64,000 nt of DNA from assembly GCF_044324785.1 (NCBI RefSeq), contig NZ_CP172127.1. One strand, 5' to 3'. Each line of letters begins with the position of its first letter. Positions within the stretch are counted from its first letter, which is position 1. Source of the stretch: Escherichia coli (GTDB taxonomy: Bacteria; Pseudomonadota; Gammaproteobacteria; Enterobacterales; Enterobacteriaceae). Both the position numbers and the translations under genes were made by a program. Positions 28,095 to 47,335 of the stretch are shown here, piece after piece. The notes below the pieces were generated by a model that worked only from the letters and a program-made list of their open reading frames with translations, did no database searches and was not told the origin of the DNA.

Positions 28095-29795
28095 TTACAT
28101 CAGCTGGCTTTCCTCACCCTCCGCGGAGCGAAAGCTAATACTCACTAACGTGCCGCCGCCGGAAGGTTGTGAAAAAGTCAGCGTCCCACCCAGCCGTTCC
28201 GCGCGCTCGCGCATGATATTCAGACCATAATGACCTTCGGGTTCTTTCGGTTCACCGATGCCAATCCCGTTGTCTCGAATATAGACTGTGTGATTGCCGT
28301 CCGGCGCGGTGACGCAACTGACGGCGATTTCGCTGGCGTTGGCGTGCTTCATCGCATTCAGCACCGCTTCGCGAATAATTTGCAACAAATGCACCTGCAT
28401 TTGCGCATCCAGCGCCAGGGTTGGCAGGCGGCAGTCGAGGGTCAGTTTAGCGCTGGTTTGATTTTGTAACGTATCCAGCATTTCCCTCAACGCGGAGGGG
28501 AGATCTGCCTGCTGCAGCGTCAGGCGGAAAGTAGTCAACAGCTCGCGTAACTGCCGATAAGCATCATTCAACGCCTGGGAAAAATCGGCCATGATACTTT
28601 GTGCGGTGGTGTTATCTTCCGGTATCGAACGCTTAAGTAACGTCAACTGGATACGTAAGTAAGAAAGTACCTGAGCCAGCGAGTCGTGCAATTCGCGGGC
28701 GATGGTCGCACGTTCTTCCATCAACAGTAACTGCTGAAAATGCTTCTGCGCCTGATTAAAGTACAAACCGCGTCCCAGCATCGACGAAACGCTGTTAAGC
28801 AGCGGTTCTGATGATGAAACGTGACTATTTTGCCAGTGCAGTTCGCCGTAAACCGTCTCTTGCATTGTCACTGGTAAAATCTGCATCGGCAATTCCGGGT
28901 TTGGTTGCCCTTCGCTAATCCGCCAGTTTTCACCGACATTTAACTCCAGATATTCAGCCGCTTCATTGTCGCGCACAATCTGCAAAATATGGCGGAAACA
29001 ATGCACATCAATCTGGCTGGTGTTCAGCGCCTGCGAACACTGATACAACACCTCCAGGCGACGCTTGGCCTCGTGGAGGTCGCGGGTCTTTTCTTCTACT
29101 GACGCTTCCAGCGAACGGTACAATTTATGCAGCTCGCTCGACATCTGGTTAAAGGTTTTGGCAAGCAGGCCAAGCTCATTCGGCAGGCTGGTATCCAGCG
29201 GCGGCGAGTCGAACTGCCCGTGTTCAATACGCTGACTGGCGGTAACCAGCTGATTCAGCGGGGCAACCACCTGATGGCGTATGCGGCGCAAAGTAAAAAA
29301 GACCAGCGTGAAAATACCGATACCGCCAGCCAGGGAAATCGCCACTACCAGCAGCATTTTGCGTTCAGCGTAGTGCTGTAAAGCCAGCACGAACAGGTCT
29401 ATCTGATTAACATAATTATTAATATTGGCCTGATACCACGGCAAATCGCCTTTGCTGAGCCGATTATTCATCTCCAGCCAGTTGGCATTCAGATGCGCAT
29501 AGCGAGTTTTTACTGCTTCTGGCACATACCAGACGTTGAGGTTGGTTAATACCGGTGAATGCAGTGCCTGATGAAATAACTGGCGATGTGCATTGAGTTG
29601 CGGACTGCCACTTTGCAAGTCGTAGCCCAGGCGGTAACTCTGCATACGCAGCGATCCGGCAATATTGATAGCCTCAGCATCGCGCAAACTGCTCGCCAGA
29701 GTTAGCAGAGCGATACCCGTGGAAAGAATCGACAGCAGCACAATGTAAAAAAAGGCCCGGGCCAGACTGGCCGAGACGGGTCGTTTAACAATCAC
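28095..29795 (-). CDS. narQ: Nitrate/nitrite sensor histidine kinase NarQ
   Basis: 566 aa from the GTG at 29793-29795 (GGAG RBS); H-box ELHDSLAQ, HAMP and ATPase domains. Confidence 0.94.
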   Translation of the reverse strand: MIVKRPVSASLARAFFYIVLLSILSTGIALLTLASSLRDAEAINIAGSLRMQSYRLGYDLQSGSPQLNAHRQLFHQALHSPVLTNLNVWYVPEAVKTRYAHLNANWLEMNNRLSKGDLPWYQANINNYVNQIDLFVLALQHYAERKMLLVVAISLAGGIGIFTLVFFTLRRIRHQVVAPLNQLVTASQRIEHGQFDSPPLDTSLPNELGLLAKTFNQMSSELHKLYRSLEASVEEKTRDLHEAKRRLEVLYQCSQALNTSQIDVHCFRHILQIVRDNEAAEYLELNVGENWRISEGQPNPELPMQILPVTMQETVYGELHWQNSHVSSSEPLLNSVSSMLGRGLYFNQAQKHFQQLLLMEERATIARELHDSLAQVLSYLRIQLTLLKRSIPEDNTTAQSIMADFSQALNDAYRQLRELLTTFRLTLQQADLPSALREMLDTLQNQTSAKLTLDCRLPTLALDAQMQVHLLQIIREAVLNAMKHANASEIAVSCVTAPDGNHTVYIRDNGIGIGEPKEPEGHYGLNIMRERAERLGGTLTFSQPSGGGTLVSISFRSAEGEESQLM

Positions 29796-30000
29796 ACGCG
29801 TCTTCTCCACAAAAAATCATTAATGTTCCAGCTCGCTGAAACGCAATTTAGTCAGTGATGGGATTATTTGATCTGCCACAGTTTATAGCGAAATAGTTAC
29901 TTATTCTGGGCACATGAACATTGCCGATTCCCCTGTAAGTCGGGTAATAACAACACTCATATAAAGAATAAGGTTTTTACAACCAAAAAAGAAGGTCGTT

Positions 30001-31980
30001 ATGAATCGTTTTATTATGGCCAACAGTCAGCAATGTCTGGGTTGTCATGCTTGTGAAATCGCCTGTGTCATGGCTCACAATGATGAGCAACATGTCCTGA
30101 GCCAACACCATTTTCATCCCCGAATTACGGTTATCAAACATCAGCAGCAACGTAGTGCAGTGACCTGTCACCATTGTGAAGATGCGCCCTGCGCCCGTAG
30201 CTGCCCTAATGGCGCAATCAGCCACGTTGATGACAGCATTCAGGTCAATCAGCAAAAGTGTATTGGCTGTAAATCCTGCGTGGTGGCCTGTCCATTTGGT
30301 ACGATGCAAATCGTCCTGACACCCGTCGCGGCGGGCAAAGTAAAAGCCACGGCGCATAAATGCGACCTTTGTGCAGGGCGCGAAAACGGTCCTGCCTGTG
30401 TCGAGAATTGCCCGGCGGACGCGCTGCAACTGGTCACTGACGCCGCACTCTCTGGCATGGCGAAATCCCGCCGCTTGCGTACCGCACGTCAGGAACATCA
30501 ACCGTGGCATGCCAGTACCGCGGCGCAAGAAATGCCGGTAATGAGTAAAGTCGAGCAAATGCAGGCAACGCCCGCGCGTGGCGAGCCGGACAAACTGGCG
30601 ATTGAAGCGCGCAAAACCGGTTTTGATGAAATTTATCTGCCATTCCGTGCCGATCAGGCACAACGGGAAGCCTCGCGCTGCCTTAAGTGCGGCGAGCACA
30701 GCGTTTGTGAATGGACCTGCCCGCTGCATAACCATATTCCACAGTGGATTGAACTGGTGAAAGCCGGAAACATCGACGCCGCCGTCGAGCTTTCTCACCA
30801 GACCAACACCCTGCCGGAAATTACCGGACGCGTTTGTCCGCAAGACCGTTTGTGTGAAGGTGCCTGTACTATTCGCGATGAGCACGGTGCGGTAACTATC
30901 GGCAACATTGAACGCTACATTTCAGATCAGGCGTTGGCGAAAGGTTGGCGTCCTGACTTAAGCCATGTCACCAAAGTGGACAAGCGGGTGGCGATTATCG
31001 GTGCGGGTCCGGCAGGGCTGGCCTGTGCGGATGTTCTGACCCGCAATGGCGTGGCGGTGACGGTGTACGATCGCCATCCAGAAATCGGTGGCTTGCTCAC
31101 TTTCGGCATTCCTTCTTTCAAACTGGATAAATCCCTGCTGGCACGCCGTCGGGAAATCTTCAGCGCGATGGGGATTCACTTCGAACTCAATTGTGAAGTG
31201 GGTAAAGATGTCTCTTTGGATTCGCTTTTGGAACAATACGACGCGGTCTTCGTTGGCGTAGGCACTTACCGTTCCATGAAAGCGGGTTTACCCAATGAAG
31301 ATGCGCCAGGCGTTTATGACGCGCTGCCGTTCCTCATCGCCAACACTAAACAGGTGATGGGACTCGAAGAGCTACCGGAAGAGCCGTTTATCAATACCGC
31401 CGGACTCAACGTCGTGGTACTGGGCGGCGGCGACACCGCGATGGACTGTGTGCGTACCGCGCTGCGCCACGGCGCGAGTAACGTCACCTGCGCTTATCGT
31501 CGTGATGAAGCTAACATGCCAGGCTCGAAGAAAGAGGTGAAGAACGCCCGCGAAGAGGGGGCCAACTTCGAATTTAACGTCCAGCCGGTGGCGCTTGAGC
31601 TGAATGAGCAAGGTCACGTTTGCGGGATTCGTTTCCTGCGTACGCGTCTTGGCGAGCCGGATGCCCAGGGGCGTCGGCGTCCAGTACCGGTGGAAGGCAG
31701 TGAATTTGTCATGCCAGCCGACGCGGTGATTATGGCGTTTGGCTTCAATCCACACGGGATGCCGTGGCTGGAGTCGCACGGTGTAACGGTAGACAAATGG
31801 GGCCGCATCATCGCGGATGTGGAAAGCCAGTACCGTTACCAGACCACGAATCCGAAAATCTTCGCCGGTGGTGACGCCGTGCGTGGTGCGGATCTGGTGG
31901 TTACCGCAATGGCAGAAGGACGTCATGCGGCACAGGGGATTATTGACTGGCTGGGGGTAAAATCAGTCAAATCTCACTGA
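30001..31980 (+). CDS. aegA: Fe-S/FAD oxidoreductase AegA (GltD-like, anaerobically expressed)
   Basis: 659 aa; N-terminal ferredoxin-like Cys clusters plus a GxGxxG dinucleotide fold (VAIIGAGPAGLACA). Confidence 0.93.
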   Translation: MNRFIMANSQQCLGCHACEIACVMAHNDEQHVLSQHHFHPRITVIKHQQQRSAVTCHHCEDAPCARSCPNGAISHVDDSIQVNQQKCIGCKSCVVACPFGTMQIVLTPVAAGKVKATAHKCDLCAGRENGPACVENCPADALQLVTDAALSGMAKSRRLRTARQEHQPWHASTAAQEMPVMSKVEQMQATPARGEPDKLAIEARKTGFDEIYLPFRADQAQREASRCLKCGEHSVCEWTCPLHNHIPQWIELVKAGNIDAAVELSHQTNTLPEITGRVCPQDRLCEGACTIRDEHGAVTIGNIERYISDQALAKGWRPDLSHVTKVDKRVAIIGAGPAGLACADVLTRNGVAVTVYDRHPEIGGLLTFGIPSFKLDKSLLARRREIFSAMGIHFELNCEVGKDVSLDSLLEQYDAVFVGVGTYRSMKAGLPNEDAPGVYDALPFLIANTKQVMGLEELPEEPFINTAGLNVVVLGGGDTAMDCVRTALRHGASNVTCAYRRDEANMPGSKKEVKNAREEGANFEFNVQPVALELNEQGHVCGIRFLRTRLGEPDAQGRRRPVPVEGSEFVMPADAVIMAFGFNPHGMPWLESHGVTVDKWGRIIADVESQYRYQTTNPKIFAGGDAVRGADLVVTAMAEGRHAAQGIIDWLGVKSVKSH

Positions 31981-32047
31981 TAGCCTGCGCAGACAAACCC
32001 GACTTCACAGCGTAAGATAATTGTTCATTTCGCGCTGTGGAGTCGGT

Positions 32048-32623
32048 ATGACGCAACAAATCACCCTCATTAAAGACAAAATTCTCTCCGATAACTATTT
32101 CACCCTGCACAACATTACTTACGATCTCACGCGCAAAGATGGCGAAGTTATCCGCCATAAACGTGAAGTTTACGATCGCGGTAATGGTGCAACGATCCTC
32201 CTGTACAACGCGAAGAAAAAGACCGTGGTTCTGATTCGTCAGTTCCGCGTCGCTACCTGGGTTAATGGCAATGAAAGCGGGCAGCTGATTGAAACCTGCG
32301 CCGGGCTGCTGGATAACGACGAACCGGAAGTGTGTATTCGTAAAGAAGCGATTGAAGAGACGGGTTATGAAGTTGGCGAAGTGCGCAAATTATTTGAACT
32401 GTATATGTCGCCAGGCGGTGTGACTGAGCTAATCCACTTCTTTATCGCCGAATACAGTGACAGCCAGCGCGCTAACGCGGGCGGTGGTGTCGAAGATGAA
32501 GATATTGAAGTGCTCGAGTTGCCGTTCAACAAGGCGCTGGAGATGATTAAAACCGGCGAGATACGTGACGGTAAGACGGTGTTATTGCTTAACTATTTGC
32601 AAATGTCACATTTAATGGACTGA
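32048..32623 (+). CDS. nudK: GDP-mannose pyrophosphatase NudK (Nudix hydrolase)
   Basis: 191 aa from ATG 32048; Nudix-box-like segment (...[14 protein letters not shown]...). Confidence 0.92.
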
Positions 32624-32748
32624 AAAATAACAATAATATTTCGTTGTTTATTATTGGCTCAATCCGATAAATCCGATTGAGCCGCGCTACCTGCGCAACG
32701 AAGATACGACTTGTGCTGTTTGTTTGAACTTCTGGGGTCGTACCGTCC

Positions 32749-33792
32749 ATGCGCTATCGCATTTTCCTTCTCTTTTTTTTCGCTTTGTTGCCGACGTCTT
32801 TGGTGTGGGCGGCACCAGCGCAACGGGCGTTTTCCGACTGGCAGGTTACCTGTAATAACCAAAATTTCTGTGTAGCGCGCAATACGGGCGATCATAATGG
32901 ACTGGTGATGACCCTGAGCCGCAGCGCCGGGGCGCATACCGATGCCGTTTTACGTATTGAGCGCGGCGGGTTGAAATCGCCGGATGCGTCTGAAGGGGAG
33001 ATAGCGCCACGGCTGCTGTTAGATGGTGAGCCGTTGGCATTAAGTGGTGACAAGTGGCGGATTTCACCATGGTTATTAGTAACCGATGATACGGCAACCA
33101 TCACCGCGTTTTTGCAGATGATTCAGGAAGGGAAGGCGATCACCTTACGCGACGGCAATCAGACCATTTCTCTGAGTGGCTTAAAAGCGGCGTTGTTGTT
33201 TATTGATGCTCAGCAAAAGCGCGTTGGCAGTGAAACCGCGTGGATCAAGAAAGGGGACGAACCGCCGCTCAGCGTACCGCCCGCGCCTGCGCTGAAAGAG
33301 GTCGCGGTGGTTAACCCAACGCCGACGCCACTCTCACTCGAAGAACGTAACGATTTGCTGGATTATGGAAACTGGCGGATGAATGGTCTGCGCTGCTCGC
33401 TTGATCCGTTACGTCGTGAGGTGAATGTCACTGCGTTGACCGATGATAAAGCACTGATGATGATTAGCTGTGAGGCAGGGGCCTATAACACCATTGATTT
33501 GGCATGGATTGTGTCGCGTAAAAAGCCGCTAGCCTCGCGCCCGGTTCGGTTGCGTTTGCCGTTCAACAACGGTCAGGAGACGAATGAACTGGAACTGATG
33601 AACGCAACATTTGATGAGAAATCGCGTGAACTGGTGACCTTAACGAAAGGGCGCGGATTAAGCGATTGTGGCATTCAGGCGCGCTGGCGCTTTGACGGTC
33701 AGCGTTTTCGCCTGGTGCGTTACGCCGCAGAACCCACCTGCGATAACTGGCATGGGCCAGACGCCTGGCCCACGTTGTGGATCACCCGTTAA
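32749..33792 (+). CDS. ypfG: Uncharacterised secreted protein YpfG (DUF1176)
   Basis: 347 aa; N-terminal signal peptide (LLFFFALLPTSLVWA|AP); several Cys. Confidence 0.9.
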   Translation: MRYRIFLLFFFALLPTSLVWAAPAQRAFSDWQVTCNNQNFCVARNTGDHNGLVMTLSRSAGAHTDAVLRIERGGLKSPDASEGEIAPRLLLDGEPLALSGDKWRISPWLLVTDDTATITAFLQMIQEGKAITLRDGNQTISLSGLKAALLFIDAQQKRVGSETAWIKKGDEPPLSVPPAPALKEVAVVNPTPTPLSLEERNDLLDYGNWRMNGLRCSLDPLRREVNVTALTDDKALMMISCEAGAYNTIDLAWIVSRKKPLASRPVRLRLPFNNGQETNELELMNATFDEKSRELVTLTKGRGLSDCGIQARWRFDGQRFRLVRYAAEPTCDNWHGPDAWPTLWITR

Positions 33793-33824
33793 ACAAAATC
33801 CCAGATGCGCCCCTAAAAAGAGCA

Positions 33825-33873
33825 CGGACCGTCCCCTCGCCCCTCTGGGGAGAGGGTTAGGGTGAGGGGAACA
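33825..33873. repeat. GC-rich ~49 bp intergenic repeat, copy 1 (between convergent ypfG and tktB)
   Basis: cggaccgtcccctcgcccctctggggagagggttagggtgaggggaaca; internally palindromic; differs at 2 positions from the copy at 47218-47266. Confidence 0.75.
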
Positions 33874-33894
33874 TACAGCATCCGGCGATCACCA

Positions 33895-35898
33895 TCAGGC
33901 ACCTTTCACTCCCAGCACCTTATGCGCTTTTGCCACAATATTCTCGGCGGTAAAGCCAAAGAACGGGAACAGCTTATCCGCCGGAGCAGATTCCCCATAA
34001 CCTGTCATCCCGACAATTGCCCCTTTCAGGCCAACATATTTGTACCAGTAATCGGCAATACCCGCTTCCACCGCCACGCGAGCCGCAACGTTAGAAGGCA
34101 ACACCGACTCGCGATATTCCTCATCCTGGGCGTCGAAAATATCGGTCGAGGGCAGGGAAACTACGCGTACATTGCGACCTTCTCCCGCTAATTTCTCTGC
34201 CGCTTGCAGGGTGATTTCCATCTCTGAACCGGTGGCAATCAAAATAATATCCGGCTTGCCGCCGCTGTCTTTCAACACATAACCACCACGAGCAATCTCT
34301 TTAACCTGATCCGGCGTACGTTCCACCTGGGCCAGATTCTGCCTGGAGAGGATCAGTGCCGTCGGTCCGTTGTGGCGCTCAACCGCCAGCTTCCAGCCCA
34401 CCGCTGCTTCCACCTGATCGCACGGTCGCCAGGTGCTGAAATTTGGCGTTAAGCGCAGACTGGCCAGTTGCTCAACAGCCTGGTGCGTAGGACCATCTTC
34501 GCCCAGACCAATTGAGTCGTGGGTATAAACCATAATCTGCCGCGCTTTCATCAGTGCCGCCATCCGCGCGGCGTTACGGGCGTATTCAACAAACATCAGG
34601 AACGTCGCGGTATACGGTACAAATCCACCGTGGTGCGCGATGCCATTGGCGATAGCGGTCATACCAAATTCACGCACCCCGTAGTGAATATAGTTGCCCG
34701 CCGGATCTTCCTTCAGCGACACAGAACCTTTCCAGATGGTGAGGTTGCTGGGAGCCAGATCCGCCGAACCGCCGAGCAGCTCCGGTAGCATCGGCCCGTA
34801 AGCGTTAAGCGTATTTTGCGAAGCCTTACGGGTAGCGATTTTCGCCGGATTTGCCTGTAACTCATTGATATATTTCTGAGTCGTTTTCTCCCAGTCCTTC
34901 GGTAAACCACCGCTCATCCGACGGGTAAACTCTTCTGCCAGTTGCGGATGGGCCTTTTTGTAGGCTGCATACTTCTCATTCCAGCTCTGCTGCGCTTTTT
35001 CGCCTTTTTCGCGGGCATCCCAGGCGTGATAAATCTCTTTAGGGATTTCAAATGGCGGATGGTGCCAGCCCAGTTTTTGCCGTGCCAGCGCCACTTCTTC
35101 TTCCCCCAGCGGTGCGCCATGCGCCTCTTCCTTACCTGCTTTATTCGGCGATCCAAAGCCAATCACTGTACGACAGATAATCAGCGACGGCTTATCTTTC
35201 ACGCTTTGCGCTTCAAGGATCGCTTCCTTCACCGCCTGCGGATCGTGACCGTCGATCTCGTGGATCACATGCCAGTGATAGGCTTCAAAACGTTTTGCTG
35301 TATCGTCGGTAAACCAGCCTTCGGTTTCACCGTCGATGGAAATACCGTTGTGATCGTAAAAACCAATCAGCTTGCCCAGTCCCAGCGTGCCCGCCAGCGA
35401 ACAGACTTCGTGGGAAATACCTTCCATCAGGCAACCGTCGCCCATAAACACATAGGTGAAGTGATCGACAATTTCATGATCCGGCTGGTTAAACTGCGCC
35501 GCCAGTGTACGCTCTGCTATCGCCAGCCCGACGGCGTTCGCCAAACCTTGTCCAAGTGGACCGGTGGTGGTTTCAACACCTGGCGTATAACCAATCTCCG
35601 GGTGACCTGGGGTTTTTGAATGCAACTGACGGAAGTTCTTCAGCTCTTCCAGCGGCAGGTCGTAACCGGTCAGATGCAGCAAACTGTAGAGCAGCATCGA
35701 CGCGTGGCCGTTGGAAAGAATAAAGCGGTCGCGATCATACCAGGTTGGGTCGGTGGGGTTATGTTTAAGAAAATCGTTCCACAGCACTTCGGCAATATCA
35801 GCCATGCCCATCGGCGCGCCGGGATGACCAGAATTGGCTTTTTGTACCGCATCCATACTGAGTGCGCGAATCGCATTGGCAAGGTCTTTTCGGGACAT
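33895..35898 (-). CDS. tktB: Transketolase 2 TktB
   Basis: 667 aa from ATG 35898 ([27 protein letters not shown]...); the ORF track adds 21 upstream codons. Confidence 0.96.
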
Positions 35899-35917
35899 AT
35901 AACACTCCGTGGCTGGT

Positions 35918-36868
35918 TTATAGTTTGGCGGCAAGAAGATCTTCCAGTTTGCGTTGATCAACGGCGAACAGACGAATGCCTTCAGACAGTTTTTCTACCG
36001 CCATCGCATCCTGATTGTGCTCCCAACGGAACTCCGCTTCGCTCATGGGAGCTGGGCGTGGGAACGTCTGAGAAGATGGGATTAATTTACGTACCACTGG
36101 CGAAACTTTTTCCTGCAGCTCCTTCAGCAAATTCGGTGCGATAGTCAGTCGATCGCAGCCGGTTAAGGCGAGGATTTGTTCGGTGCGACGGAAGCTCGCG
36201 CCCATCACAATGGTTTCATAGTGGTGTTGCTTATAGTAGTCGTAGATATTGCGTACTGATTTAACGCCTGGATCTTCTTCCACCACATACGGGTCCATCG
36301 GCTTGCGTGCCTGATACCAGTCATAAATACGCCCGACAAACGGCGAAATAAGAAATACGCCTGCTTCTGCACAGGCCCGCGCCTGTGCAAAAGAAAACAG
36401 CAGCGTCAGGTTGCAGTTAATACCTTCTTTTTCCAGCTCTTCTGCCGCGCGAATTCCTTCCCAGGTTGAAGCCAGCTTGATCAAAATGCGTGATTTCTCA
36501 ACGCCTTGTTGCTGATACAAGTCCACCAGATGGCGCGCTTTCTCAATACTCTTTTCTTTATCAAAAGAGAGGCGTGCATCAACTTCTGTTGACACGCGAC
36601 CGGGTACGATTTTGAGAATTTCAGCACCGAAATTGACCGCCAGTTTGTCACACGCTGCGACCACCTGTTGTTCCTGGGTCTTGCCATTTTTTTTACCCCA
36701 GGCGATAGCATCGTCTATTAAATGCTCATATTGTGATAATCCGGCAGCCTTGAGTAACAGCGAAGGATTGGTGGTGGCATCCTGGGGATGATAATGGCGA
36801 ATGGACTCAATATCGCCGCTGTCTGCCACGACAGTGGTGAACTGTTTGATGCCGTCTAACTCGTTCAT
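35918..36868 (-). CDS. talA: Transaldolase A TalA
   Basis: 316 aa; 19 bp upstream of tktB on the same strand. Confidence 0.96.
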
Positions 36869-37156
36869 AGGAAATACTCCTTGAAAAGTAAAGTGTTAGA
36901 TGAGTGCGTTAATTCACACTTCTGAGAAATTTCGCTAAACGCATCAAAAAAGCATAGCAGACAGGCATGGTATTGCTGGATTAAGCAGGTAACATCAGTG
37001 TTATAGGATTATTACCAAAACATTATATTAATGGTGAGAGTTTGGACTTGCTCAAAGTCTGTAGACTCCGGCAAGGTAATAATGTGCGCCACGTTGTGGG
37101 CAGGGGCTGTTGCCCACACACTTTACTTGTGAACGTTACGTGAAAGGAACAACCAA

Positions 37157-39436
37157 ATGGATGACCAGTTAAAACAAAGTGCACTTGATTTCCATGAATT
37201 TCCAGTTCCAGGGAAAATCCAGGTTTCTCCAACCAAGCCTCTGGCAACGCAGCGCGATCTGGCGCTGGCCTACTCACCAGGCGTTGCCGCACCTTGTCTT
37301 GAAATCGAAAAAGACCCGTTAAAAGCCTACAAATATACCGCGCGCGGTAACCTGGTGGCGGTGATCTCTAACGGTACGGCGGTGCTGGGGTTAGGCAACA
37401 TTGGCGCGCTGGCAGGCAAACCGGTGATGGAAGGCAAGGGCGTTCTGTTTAAGAAATTCGCCGGGATTGATGTATTTGACATTGAAGTTGATGAACTCGA
37501 CCCGGACAAATTTATTGAAGTCGTCGCCGCGCTTGAACCGACCTTCGGCGGCATCAACCTCGAAGACATTAAAGCGCCAGAATGTTTCTATATTGAACAG
37601 AAACTGCGCGAGCGAATGAATATTCCGGTATTCCACGACGATCAGCACGGCACGGCAATCATCAGCACTGCCGCCATCCTCAACGGTTTGCGCGTGGTGG
37701 AGAAAAACATCTCCGACGTGCGGATGGTGGTTTCCGGCGCGGGTGCCGCAGCAATCGCCTGTATGAACCTGCTGGTAGCGCTGGGTCTGCAAAAACATAA
37801 CATCGTGGTTTGCGATTCAAAAGGCGTTATCTATCAGGGCCGTGAGCCAAACATGGCGGAAACCAAAGCCGCATATGCGGTGGTGGATGACGGCAAACGT
37901 ACCCTCGATGATGTGATTGAAGGCGCGGATATTTTCCTCGGCTGTTCCGGCCCGAAAGTGCTGACCCAGGAAATGGTGAAGAAAATGGCTCGTGCGCCAA
38001 TGATCCTGGCGCTGGCGAATCCGGAACCGGAAATTCTGCCGCCGCTGGCGAAAGAAGTGCGTCCGGATGCCATCATCTGCACCGGTCGTTCCGACTACCC
38101 GAACCAGGTGAACAACGTTCTTTGCTTCCCGTTCATCTTCCGTGGCGCGCTGGACGTTGGCGCAACCGCCATCAACGAAGAGATGAAACTGGCGGCGGTA
38201 CGCGCGATTGCAGAACTGGCCCATGCGGAACAGAGTGAAGTGGTGGCTTCAGCTTATGGCGATCAGGATCTGAGCTTTGGTCCGGAATACATCATTCCAA
38301 AACCGTTTGATCCGCGCTTGATCGTTAAGATCGCTCCTGCGGTCGCTAAAGCAGCGATGGAGTCGGGCGTGGCGACGCGTCCGATTGCTGATTTCGACGT
38401 CTACATCGACAAGCTGACGGAGTTCGTTTACAAAACCAACCTGTTTATGAAGCCGATTTTTTCCCAGGCTCGCAAAGCGCCGAAGCGCGTCGTTCTGCCG
38501 GAAGGGGAAGAGGCGCGCGTTCTGCATGCCACTCAGGAACTGGTAACGCTGGGGCTGGCGAAACCGATCCTTATCGGTCGTCCGAACGTGATCGAAATGC
38601 GCATTCAGAAACTGGGCTTGCAGATCAAAGCGGGCGTTGATTTTGAGATCGTCAATAACGAATCCGATCCGCGCTTTAAAGAGTACTGGACCGAATACTT
38701 CCAGATCATGAAGCGTCGCGGCGTCACTCAGGAACAGGCGCAGCGGGCGCTGATCAGTGACCCGACAGTGATTGGCGCGATCATGGTTCAGCGTGGCGAA
38801 GCCGATGCAATGATCTGCGGTACGGTGGGCGATTATCATGAACATTTTAGCGTGGTGAAAAATGTCTTTGGTTATCGCGATGGCGTTCACACCGCAGGTG
38901 CCATGAACGCGCTGCTGCTGCCGAGTGGTAACACCTTTATTGCCGATACTTACGTTAATGACGAACCAGACGCAGAAGAGCTTGCGGAGATCACCTTGAT
39001 GGCGGCAGAAACTGTTCGTCGTTTCGGTATTGAACCGCGCGTGGCTCTGTTGTCGCACTCCAACTTTGGTTCTTCTGACTGCCCGTCGTCGAGCAAAATG
39101 CGTCAGGCGCTGGAACTGGTCAGGGAACGTGCACCAGAACTGATGATTGATGGTGAAATGCACGGCGATGCAGCGCTGGTGGAAGCGATTCGCAGCGACC
39201 GTATGCCGGACAGCCCTTTGAAAGGTTCCGCTAATATTCTGGTGATGCCGAACATGGAAGCTGCCCGCATTAGTTACAACTTATTGCGCGTTTCCAGCTC
39301 GGAAGGTGTGACTGTCGGTCCGGTGCTGATGGGCGTGGCGAAACCGGTTCACGTGTTAACGCCGATCGCATCGGTACGTCGTATCGTCAACATGGTGGCG
39401 CTGGCTGTGGTTGAAGCACAAACCCAACCGCTGTAA
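37157..39436 (+). CDS. maeB: NADP-dependent malic enzyme MaeB (malic enzyme fused to a PTA-like domain)
   Basis: 759 aa matching E. coli MaeB. Confidence 0.96.
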
Positions 39437-47217: not shown

Positions 47218-47335
47218 CGGACAGTCCCCTCGCCCCTTTGGGGAGAGGGTTAGGGTGAGGGGAACAGAGTCGCGCCGGTGCAAACAATTACCCTCACCCC
47301 GGCCCCTCGGCTTCCAGAGTGAGGGAAAAACCCAC
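47218..47335. repeat. GC-rich intergenic repeat, copy 2, plus downstream inverted partial copies, between eutG and eutH
   Basis: 47218-47266 cggacagtcccctcgcccctttggggagagggttagggtgaggggaaca; 47291-47300 ccctcacccc is the reverse complement of the gggtgagggg core, and gagtgaggg recurs at ~47318. Confidence 0.75.

Follow-up and report, generated by a model that had tools for sequence, protein, structure and literature searches.

The subject of this analysis is an open reading frame at 32749-33792 of a 64,000-nucleotide stretch of Escherichia coli DNA (NCBI RefSeq assembly GCF_044324785.1, contig NZ_CP172127.1), referred to here as the window. The results showed that it is the E. coli core gene ypfG, an already-known member of the DUF1176 family, and the reading that we favour, with modest confidence, is that its product is a periplasmic, probably non-enzymatic binding protein induced by the Rcs system. 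Published expression data put ypfG among the genes that rise most when the Rcs envelope-stress phosphorelay is switched on. A disulfide map, a domain architecture with an IalB-like fold and a conserved RcsB-type promoter are added here as predictions.

The reading frame runs from ATG to TAA over exactly this interval of the plus strand (347 codons plus the stop codon).

32749..33792, plus strand: ypfG coding sequence, DUF1176 family (open reading frame, full-length PF06674 match, RefSeq annotation and comparison with K-12).

The Pfam DUF1176 profile (PF06674) matched residues 25-347 over profile positions 1-322 of 322 (E = 1.2e-106), with a score of 357.4 bits against a curated cut-off of 34.8; no NCBIfam model matched YpfG. 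A megablast search with 32600-33900 against the 5426 complete RefSeq E. coli genomes located ypfG in 5424 of them, where the gene is labelled 'ypfG: DUF1176 domain-containing protein' and is flanked by nudK and tkt. Compared with b2466 of K-12 MG1655, the window copy differed at 23 of 1044 nucleotides and only 3 of 347 amino acids (E79D, D137N and A299T), so the changes are mostly synonymous. The K-12 counterpart is the same gene in the same synteny, with a full-length DUF1176 domain and a coding sequence that differs in nothing material. In GC content, both by codon position (0.56/0.47/0.60) and overall (0.54), ypfG is unremarkable for the window. The original prediction, made from the letters alone, had named the gene as ypfG and described a conserved but uncharacterised DUF1176 protein; the full-length profile match, the RefSeq annotation and the near-universal presence in E. 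coli bear out the name and the conservation. The description as uncharacterised also stands, since a full-text search for published work on ypfG, DUF1176 or b2466 returned transcriptome tables and lists only, with no functional characterisation, and the functional literature that might have contradicted it did not turn up.

Six independent published datasets strongly support an Rcs-type expression of ypfG. When lipoprotein sorting was blocked with a LolCDE inhibitor, ypfG rose 38- to 44-fold, alongside ycfJ, bdm, wca, ypeC, rcsA, yjbE/G and spy (PMC5105897). In an O157:H7 isolate with a disrupted rcsB, ypfG was 4.6-fold lower, and ycfJ and ypeC were down about 24-fold (PMC5343319). In extraintestinal pathogenic E. 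coli (ExPEC), ypfG, ycfJ and ygaC rose only when serum complement was active (PMC4145685). The 13 genes that rose in recipients of RP4, in E. coli and Klebsiella alike, included ypfG and ypeC; in carbapenem-resistant E. coli under ertapenem/meropenem, the DUF1176 gene was up together with ivy and a ymgD-like gene, with flhDC down; and enterohaemorrhagic E. coli in cattle faeces strongly induced ypfG. The core Rcs-regulon genes ycfJ, ypeC, yaiY and ygaC, to which no function is assigned either, shared this expression signature with ypfG over several datasets. Taken together, the data strongly support a place for ypfG among the genes that respond most to triggering of the phosphorelay.

The region upstream of ypfG contains a candidate site for the response regulator RcsB. 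Two genes, aegA and nudK (32048-32623), precede ypfG on the same strand, and the 125-bp spacer between the end of nudK and ypfG was aligned with the corresponding spacers of Salmonella, Enterobacter and Citrobacter. Three conserved islands emerged from an otherwise divergent spacer: ATCCGATAAATCCGATTGAG at 32662-32681, GAAGATAC at 32700-32707, and the leader GGGG..GTACCGTCC right before the ATG. The elements recognised in the spacer are as follows.

32660..32679, plus strand: 20-bp palindrome CAATCCGATAAATCCGATTG, candidate activator site (RcsB-box likeness, rprA likeness and conservation).
32700..32705, plus strand: -10-like hexamer GAAGAT, 23 nt past the box (fixed spacing across Enterobacteriaceae and Erwiniaceae).
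32734..32748, plus strand: conserved 5' leader block GGGGTCGTACCGTCC, whose GGGG (32734-32737) resembles a Shine-Dalgarno element.

The palindrome shares its centre with the 14-mer TCCGATAAATCCGA at 32663-32676, which resembles the RcsB box TN(G/A)GAN4TC(T/C)NA, a motif defined structurally and genome-wide in Salmonella, with rprA among the promoters for which boxes are described (PMC7913699). Thirteen of the 14 positions fit the box and the right half-site is perfect, which is a motif match and not a proof of binding. Fourteen positions of the 20-mer are shared with a site ahead of rprA in K-12 (TGAGACGAATCTGA plus flanks). The rprA promoter is activated by RcsB and its site fits the box strictly, whereas the left half-site of ypfG deviates at one position and binding of RcsB there is predicted only. 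The 5' end of the rprA site lies 49 nt before the RNA start, and the distance from box to -10 is comparable to that in ypfG; by analogy with rprA, transcription of ypfG is predicted to start near 32711-32713.

The same arrangement was followed through 80 Enterobacterales ypfG loci, obtained from a genome scan with a narrower alignment that recovered almost only this order. Every one of the 29 testable Enterobacteriaceae loci had the 20-mer with at most five mismatches, in 27 cases 83-99 nt ahead of the ATG, and most Erwiniaceae loci had it with one to five mismatches, despite YpfG being just 44-50% identical there. The -10-like block followed the box by 23-24 nt and read GAAGAT, or GATGAT/CATGAT in Erwiniaceae, and the intervening spacer was not conserved. 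Across 58 distinct upstream regions, anchored on the box, the top base reached a mean frequency of 0.87 within the box and 0.83 within the -10-like block, compared with 0.39-0.43 for flanks and spacer; the anchoring pattern forces part of the value for the box, but neither the AAT and TTGAG that flank it nor the -10 block. A box with a -10 element at fixed spacing is characteristic of an activator site standing in for the -35 element. A generic sigma-70 promoter scan did not pick up the proposed ypfG promoter, as expected for an activator-dependent promoter whose -35 region is replaced by the activator site. The leader block was near-invariant in E. coli, Salmonella, Enterobacter and Citrobacter; its GGGG lies 11 nt from the ATG, beyond the usual Shine-Dalgarno spacing, so it may have another role, such as in mRNA structure or as a small-RNA target. 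The box and -10 block of Pantoea, Erwinia and Mixta are further from the assigned start codon (about 190-200 nt) than those of Enterobacteriaceae (about 87 nt), which would mean either a leader longer by about 110 nt in these genera or a true start codon further upstream.

A different regulator has been proposed for the same region. Control of ypfG by Fur, and with it a part in iron or siderophore biology, would agree with the Fur box predicted upstream of it in the ExPEC serum study (PMC4145685) and with a Klebsiella pneumoniae preprint that lists YpfG in network links to siderophore functions. In the serum study, however, ypfG responded to active complement only and not to iron-poor inactivated serum (PMC4145685). 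The AT-rich imperfect palindrome AAAAATAACAATAATATTTCGTTGTTTATTATTGG at 32624-32658, right after the nudK stop codon, may be the end of the nudK transcript or the predicted Fur box; this stretch is not conserved in Enterobacter and Citrobacter, whereas the RcsB-like box is. In addition, the genes that rise together with ypfG under complement, ycfJ and ygaC, are also top genes under the LolCDE inhibitor, beside known Rcs targets (PMC5105897). Because of the missing response to iron-poor serum, the lack of conservation of the AT-rich stretch and the behaviour of these co-rising genes, we infer that the complement response is an Rcs response, and we regard regulation by Fur as very improbable.

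The features of the protein agree with a periplasmic destination. A clear signal peptide and several cysteines, likely forming disulfides in the periplasm, had been noticed in the original prediction, and both observations held up on closer analysis. The N terminus of YpfG reads MRYR, followed by IFLLFFFALLPTSLV and by VWA and AP, between which cleavage is predicted.

32749..32811, plus strand: signal peptide, residues 1-21 (MRYRIFLLFFFALLPTSLVWA), the sole strongly hydrophobic segment, with predicted cleavage between VWA and AP.

Strong hydrophobicity is confined to residues 5-19 of YpfG, and cleavage after A21 was placed by the -3/-1 rule and is thus a rule-based prediction. In a family alignment of 98 full-length relatives (25-80% identity), a hydrophobic leader preceded the conserved Trp31 in 93 members. 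The first cysteine is at residue 35, so YpfG has no lipobox. On the sequence evidence, a Sec-type leader of the cleavable type on the 347-residue precursor is strongly supported. All six cysteines (35, 41, 216, 241, 307 and 331) fall within the mature part. C35 and C41 were invariant in the 98 relatives, and the other four were present in 95-97 of them. The losses occurred in pairs, C216 together with C241 in three sequences and C307 together with C331 in one, and this joint loss points to disulfides 216-241 and 307-331 and, by elimination, 35-41. The alignment therefore supports a predicted map of three disulfides. The conserved cysteine pairs in each of two compact soluble domains fit a Dsb-oxidised periplasmic protein with a mature size of about 36 kDa, and we infer both Sec export and Dsb oxidation of YpfG.

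Structure prediction, which had been suggested as a check on the gene, gave a confident two-domain AlphaFold2 model from the 98-sequence alignment (mean predicted local distance difference test score, pLDDT, 93.5; predicted template modelling score, pTM, 0.89). The mature protein was divided on this basis.

32818..33258, plus strand: N-terminal domain, residues ~24-170, beta-rich with two helices, an IalB-like fold and a Cys35-Cys41 hairpin.
33259..33333, plus strand: Pro-rich linker, residues ~171-195, with no regular secondary structure, high pLDDT and a conserved P177.
33334..33789, plus strand: C-terminal domain, residues ~196-347, one long helix on an antiparallel sheet, with Cys216-Cys241 and Cys307-Cys331.

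The most conserved positions of the N-terminal domain are D30, W31, N37, R58, D92 and S141-L-x-G-x-x-A-x-L-L-x-x-D153-x-x-Q156-x-R158, the last of which belong to the top-conserved stretch SLxGLxAALLxxDxxQxR (141-158). In the C-terminal domain, where the long helix of the AlphaFold2 model comprises residues 197-212, they are G244-A-Y246, K300-G-R-G-x-x-D306-C-G308, W313, D316, G317 and F320, and the conserved motifs read GAY(N/Q) and KGRGxxDCG.

The structural matches of the model were to IalB and to cystatin-like proteins, which are types found in soluble proteins. The predicted N-terminal domain has the fold of Bartonella IalB (invasion-associated locus B protein; PDB 3dtd), and this is a likeness at the level of the fold only. 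Membership of the IalB sequence family (PF06776) was ruled out: YpfG gave no match at E <= 1, N-domain segments from ten diverse relatives gave none at E <= 10, and the IalB profile matched 1 of the 98 DUF1176 relatives at E 0.02, which is noise level. YpfG also differs from IalB in being twice as large, with a second, unrelated domain. Since IalB itself has no assigned biochemical activity, the likeness transfers no mechanism to YpfG. A Foldseek search of the model against the PDB returned no significant match, and searches of the PDB by sequence and by profile found no solved structure related to YpfG. An older annotation suggested that YpfG might be an outer-membrane beta-barrel. The protein is indeed beta-rich, but the confident model predicts two globular alpha/beta domains with helices and a Pro-rich linker and no closed transmembrane barrel, and the conserved disulfides and the IalB- and cystatin-like matches are typical of soluble proteins; we find the barrel hardly tenable.

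The DUF1176 family comprises 1525 clusters at 50% identity (E <= 0.001) and ranges over gamma-, beta- and alphaproteobacteria, including Luteimonas, Pseudoxanthomonas, Burkholderia, Sphingomonas, Acidisphaera and Brucella. Rare fusions join DUF1176 to a DUF2127 membrane domain, to a second DUF1176 in tandem, or to an LprI (lysozyme-inhibitor) domain that barely passes its threshold (23.3 bits, cut-off 22). The locus of the DUF1176-LprI fusion adjoins genes for an extracytoplasmic function (ECF) sigma factor and a Spy/CpxP-like (Metal_resist) protein.

These findings can be combined into a proposed mechanism. Phosphorylated RcsB would bind 32663-32676, over the -35 region, and would activate transcription of ypfG from about 32712. 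The exported protein would then build up in the periplasm during damage to the outer membrane or the peptidoglycan. There it may act as a non-catalytic binder, through its IalB-like beta domain and its helix-on-sheet roll, and could bind or shield either some component of the envelope or a harmful protein coming in from outside. The non-catalytic role is the weakest step and was deduced from the lack of an enzyme signature together with the kinds of fold found.

Several points weigh against this proposal. The ExPEC serum study credits the induction of ypfG to its predicted Fur box and not to Rcs (PMC4145685). The left half-site of TCCGATAAATCCGA has a C at position 3, where the consensus calls for G/A, and the Yersiniaceae and Hafniaceae orthologues lack the 20-mer in their upstream regions, where the best matches carry 7-10 mismatches, the level expected by chance. 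In the literature searched, no experiment demonstrated where YpfG resides, its disulfides, binding of RcsB to its promoter or a phenotype. Finally, the term 'non-enzymatic' is an argument from absence, and the invariant polar residues D153, Q156, R158, Y246, K300, R302, D306 and D316 could form an active site.

The last point leads to an enzyme that remodels an envelope polymer (peptidoglycan, lipopolysaccharide or capsule) through polar residues at the domain interface, a reading that we consider unlikely. The eight residues just named are invariant or near-invariant, the high pTM suggests a fixed arrangement of the two predicted domains with a possible cleft, and envelope remodelling, for example capsule synthesis, is ascribed to Rcs-regulated genes. 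On the other hand, no hydrolase or transferase family matched YpfG in sequence or in fold, and its neighbours are related to it only by position, with none common to distant homologues. The DUF1176 gene was solitary, with no recurring neighbour, in the Luteimonas, Burkholderia and two metagenomic loci. The PADLOC defence-system library and the PHROGs phage library gave no match for YpfG.

Since several Rcs-regulated periplasmic proteins are lysozyme inhibitors, the possibility of an inhibitor was tested directly. YpfG would then serve in the periplasm specifically to inhibit, or to give immunity-like protection against, cell-wall hydrolases from outside (lysozymes, or effectors of type VI or type IV secretion), and would form a new class beside the Rcs-regulated Ivy, MliC and PliG. 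Membership of these three families was ruled out by hhalign comparison of the DUF1176 family profile with the E. coli proteins (probabilities of 0.4%, 1.3% and 0.4%, respectively). The sole aligned piece was seven columns long, LgDCG against the PHDCG loop of Ivy, and was not significant. A Pfam scan of YpfG returned no inhibitor family, and its fold matches to PliI-type proteins were at background level; YpfG thus has no detectable homology to Ivy, MliC/PliC, PliG or PliI. An analogous inhibitor or binding role is weakly supported, and we judge a dedicated inhibitor quite unlikely.

A bolder version of the preferred reading, of an Rcs-induced periplasmic binding protein, is that YpfG founds a new class of envelope-damage-response protein, an IalB-like domain joined to a cystatin-like roll and switched on by RcsB, which neutralises an incoming harmful protein, be it lysozyme, a secreted effector or part of the complement system, or patches damaged peptidoglycan or outer membrane. 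We offer this as a speculation that is improbable as it stands. If true, it would give the first molecular function for DUF1176 and, by extension, for IalB-like domains.

The genomic neighbourhood raises one further explanation, in which YpfG partners with NudK, a GDP-mannose Nudix hydrolase, for example in the control of capsule precursors. The order nudK-ypfG-tktB-talA is common to the window, K-12, Salmonella, Enterobacter, Citrobacter and most of the 80 Enterobacterales loci; nudK stands upstream of ypfG across Enterobacterales, with a gap of just 16 bp in one case. The pairing echoes ialA/ialB of Bartonella, in that the N-terminal domain of YpfG is IalB-like and ialA encodes a Nudix hydrolase (PMC6299047). 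NudK, however, comes without a signal peptide context, and ypfG has conserved promoter elements of its own. In Yersiniaceae and many Erwiniaceae, additional genes separate nudK from ypfG. The Nudix subfamily of NudK is not that of IalA. None of the distant DUF1176 loci examined has a Nudix gene next to it, so the pairing of nudK with an IalB-like protein is probably a coincidence, and we hold a partnership to be highly unlikely. Downstream, the convergent tktB-talA genes follow, with tktB ending at 33895 and a ypfG-tktB spacer of 102 bp (33793-33894). ypfG had been described as standing alone between nudK and a GC-rich repeat; the spacers of 125 and 102 bp and a repeat at 33832-33870 agree with this, and ypfG as a stand-alone transcription unit is strongly supported.

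The present analysis re-identifies a known gene, and its value lies in the testable predictions of a promoter site, disulfides, domain boundaries and conserved residues. The gene is near-universal in E. coli, its family reaches alpha-, beta- and gammaproteobacteria including Brucella, and it is among the genes most induced by envelope damage from antibiotics, complement and conjugation. A defined function of YpfG would fill a gap in the understanding of Rcs protection, and might explain the IalB-like domain that has been linked to erythrocyte invasion by Bartonella.

The repeat downstream of ypfG was characterised as follows.

33832..33870, unstranded: GC-rich dispersed hairpin repeat between the convergent ypfG and tktB, an inverted repeat with 11-nt arms.

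Its core is CCCCTCTGGGGAGAGGGTTAGGGTGAGGGG, and a second copy lies at 47233-47262, about 13 kb away. The repeat folds as a hairpin in the predicted RNA, and the spacer as a whole is no stabler than shuffled sequence (z -1.1); a bidirectional transcript end at the repeat is possible. It appears to resemble the 'BoxC' repeat of E. coli. The K-12 ypfG-tktB spacer differs from that of the window in its repeat element, and the spacer is variable in general: K-12 has GCCGGATAAGACGC repeats of the repetitive extragenic palindromic (REP) type there, and Salmonella an extra 76-codon gene. An Rfam search over 32000-34500 gave just one sub-threshold chance match, and a terminator-like match was dismissed, as it sits inside the start of ypfG.

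At a wider scale, the 8.5 kb around ypfG (29026-37533 of the window) shares about 98% identity with K-12, and the best-matching complete E. coli genome reaches 98.8% over 1.3 kb; the window therefore belongs to an Escherichia or Shigella lineage distinct from K-12 that has no close counterpart among the complete genomes. Within the DWQVTCNN codons of ypfG, TGGCAGGTTACCTGTAAT at 32839-32856 resembles a sigma-54 -24/-12 element; the Salmonella equivalent, TGGCAGGTCACCTGCAAT, has been reported as an intragenic sigma-54 binding site (PMC3844500), and the -12 GC is altered in the window version.

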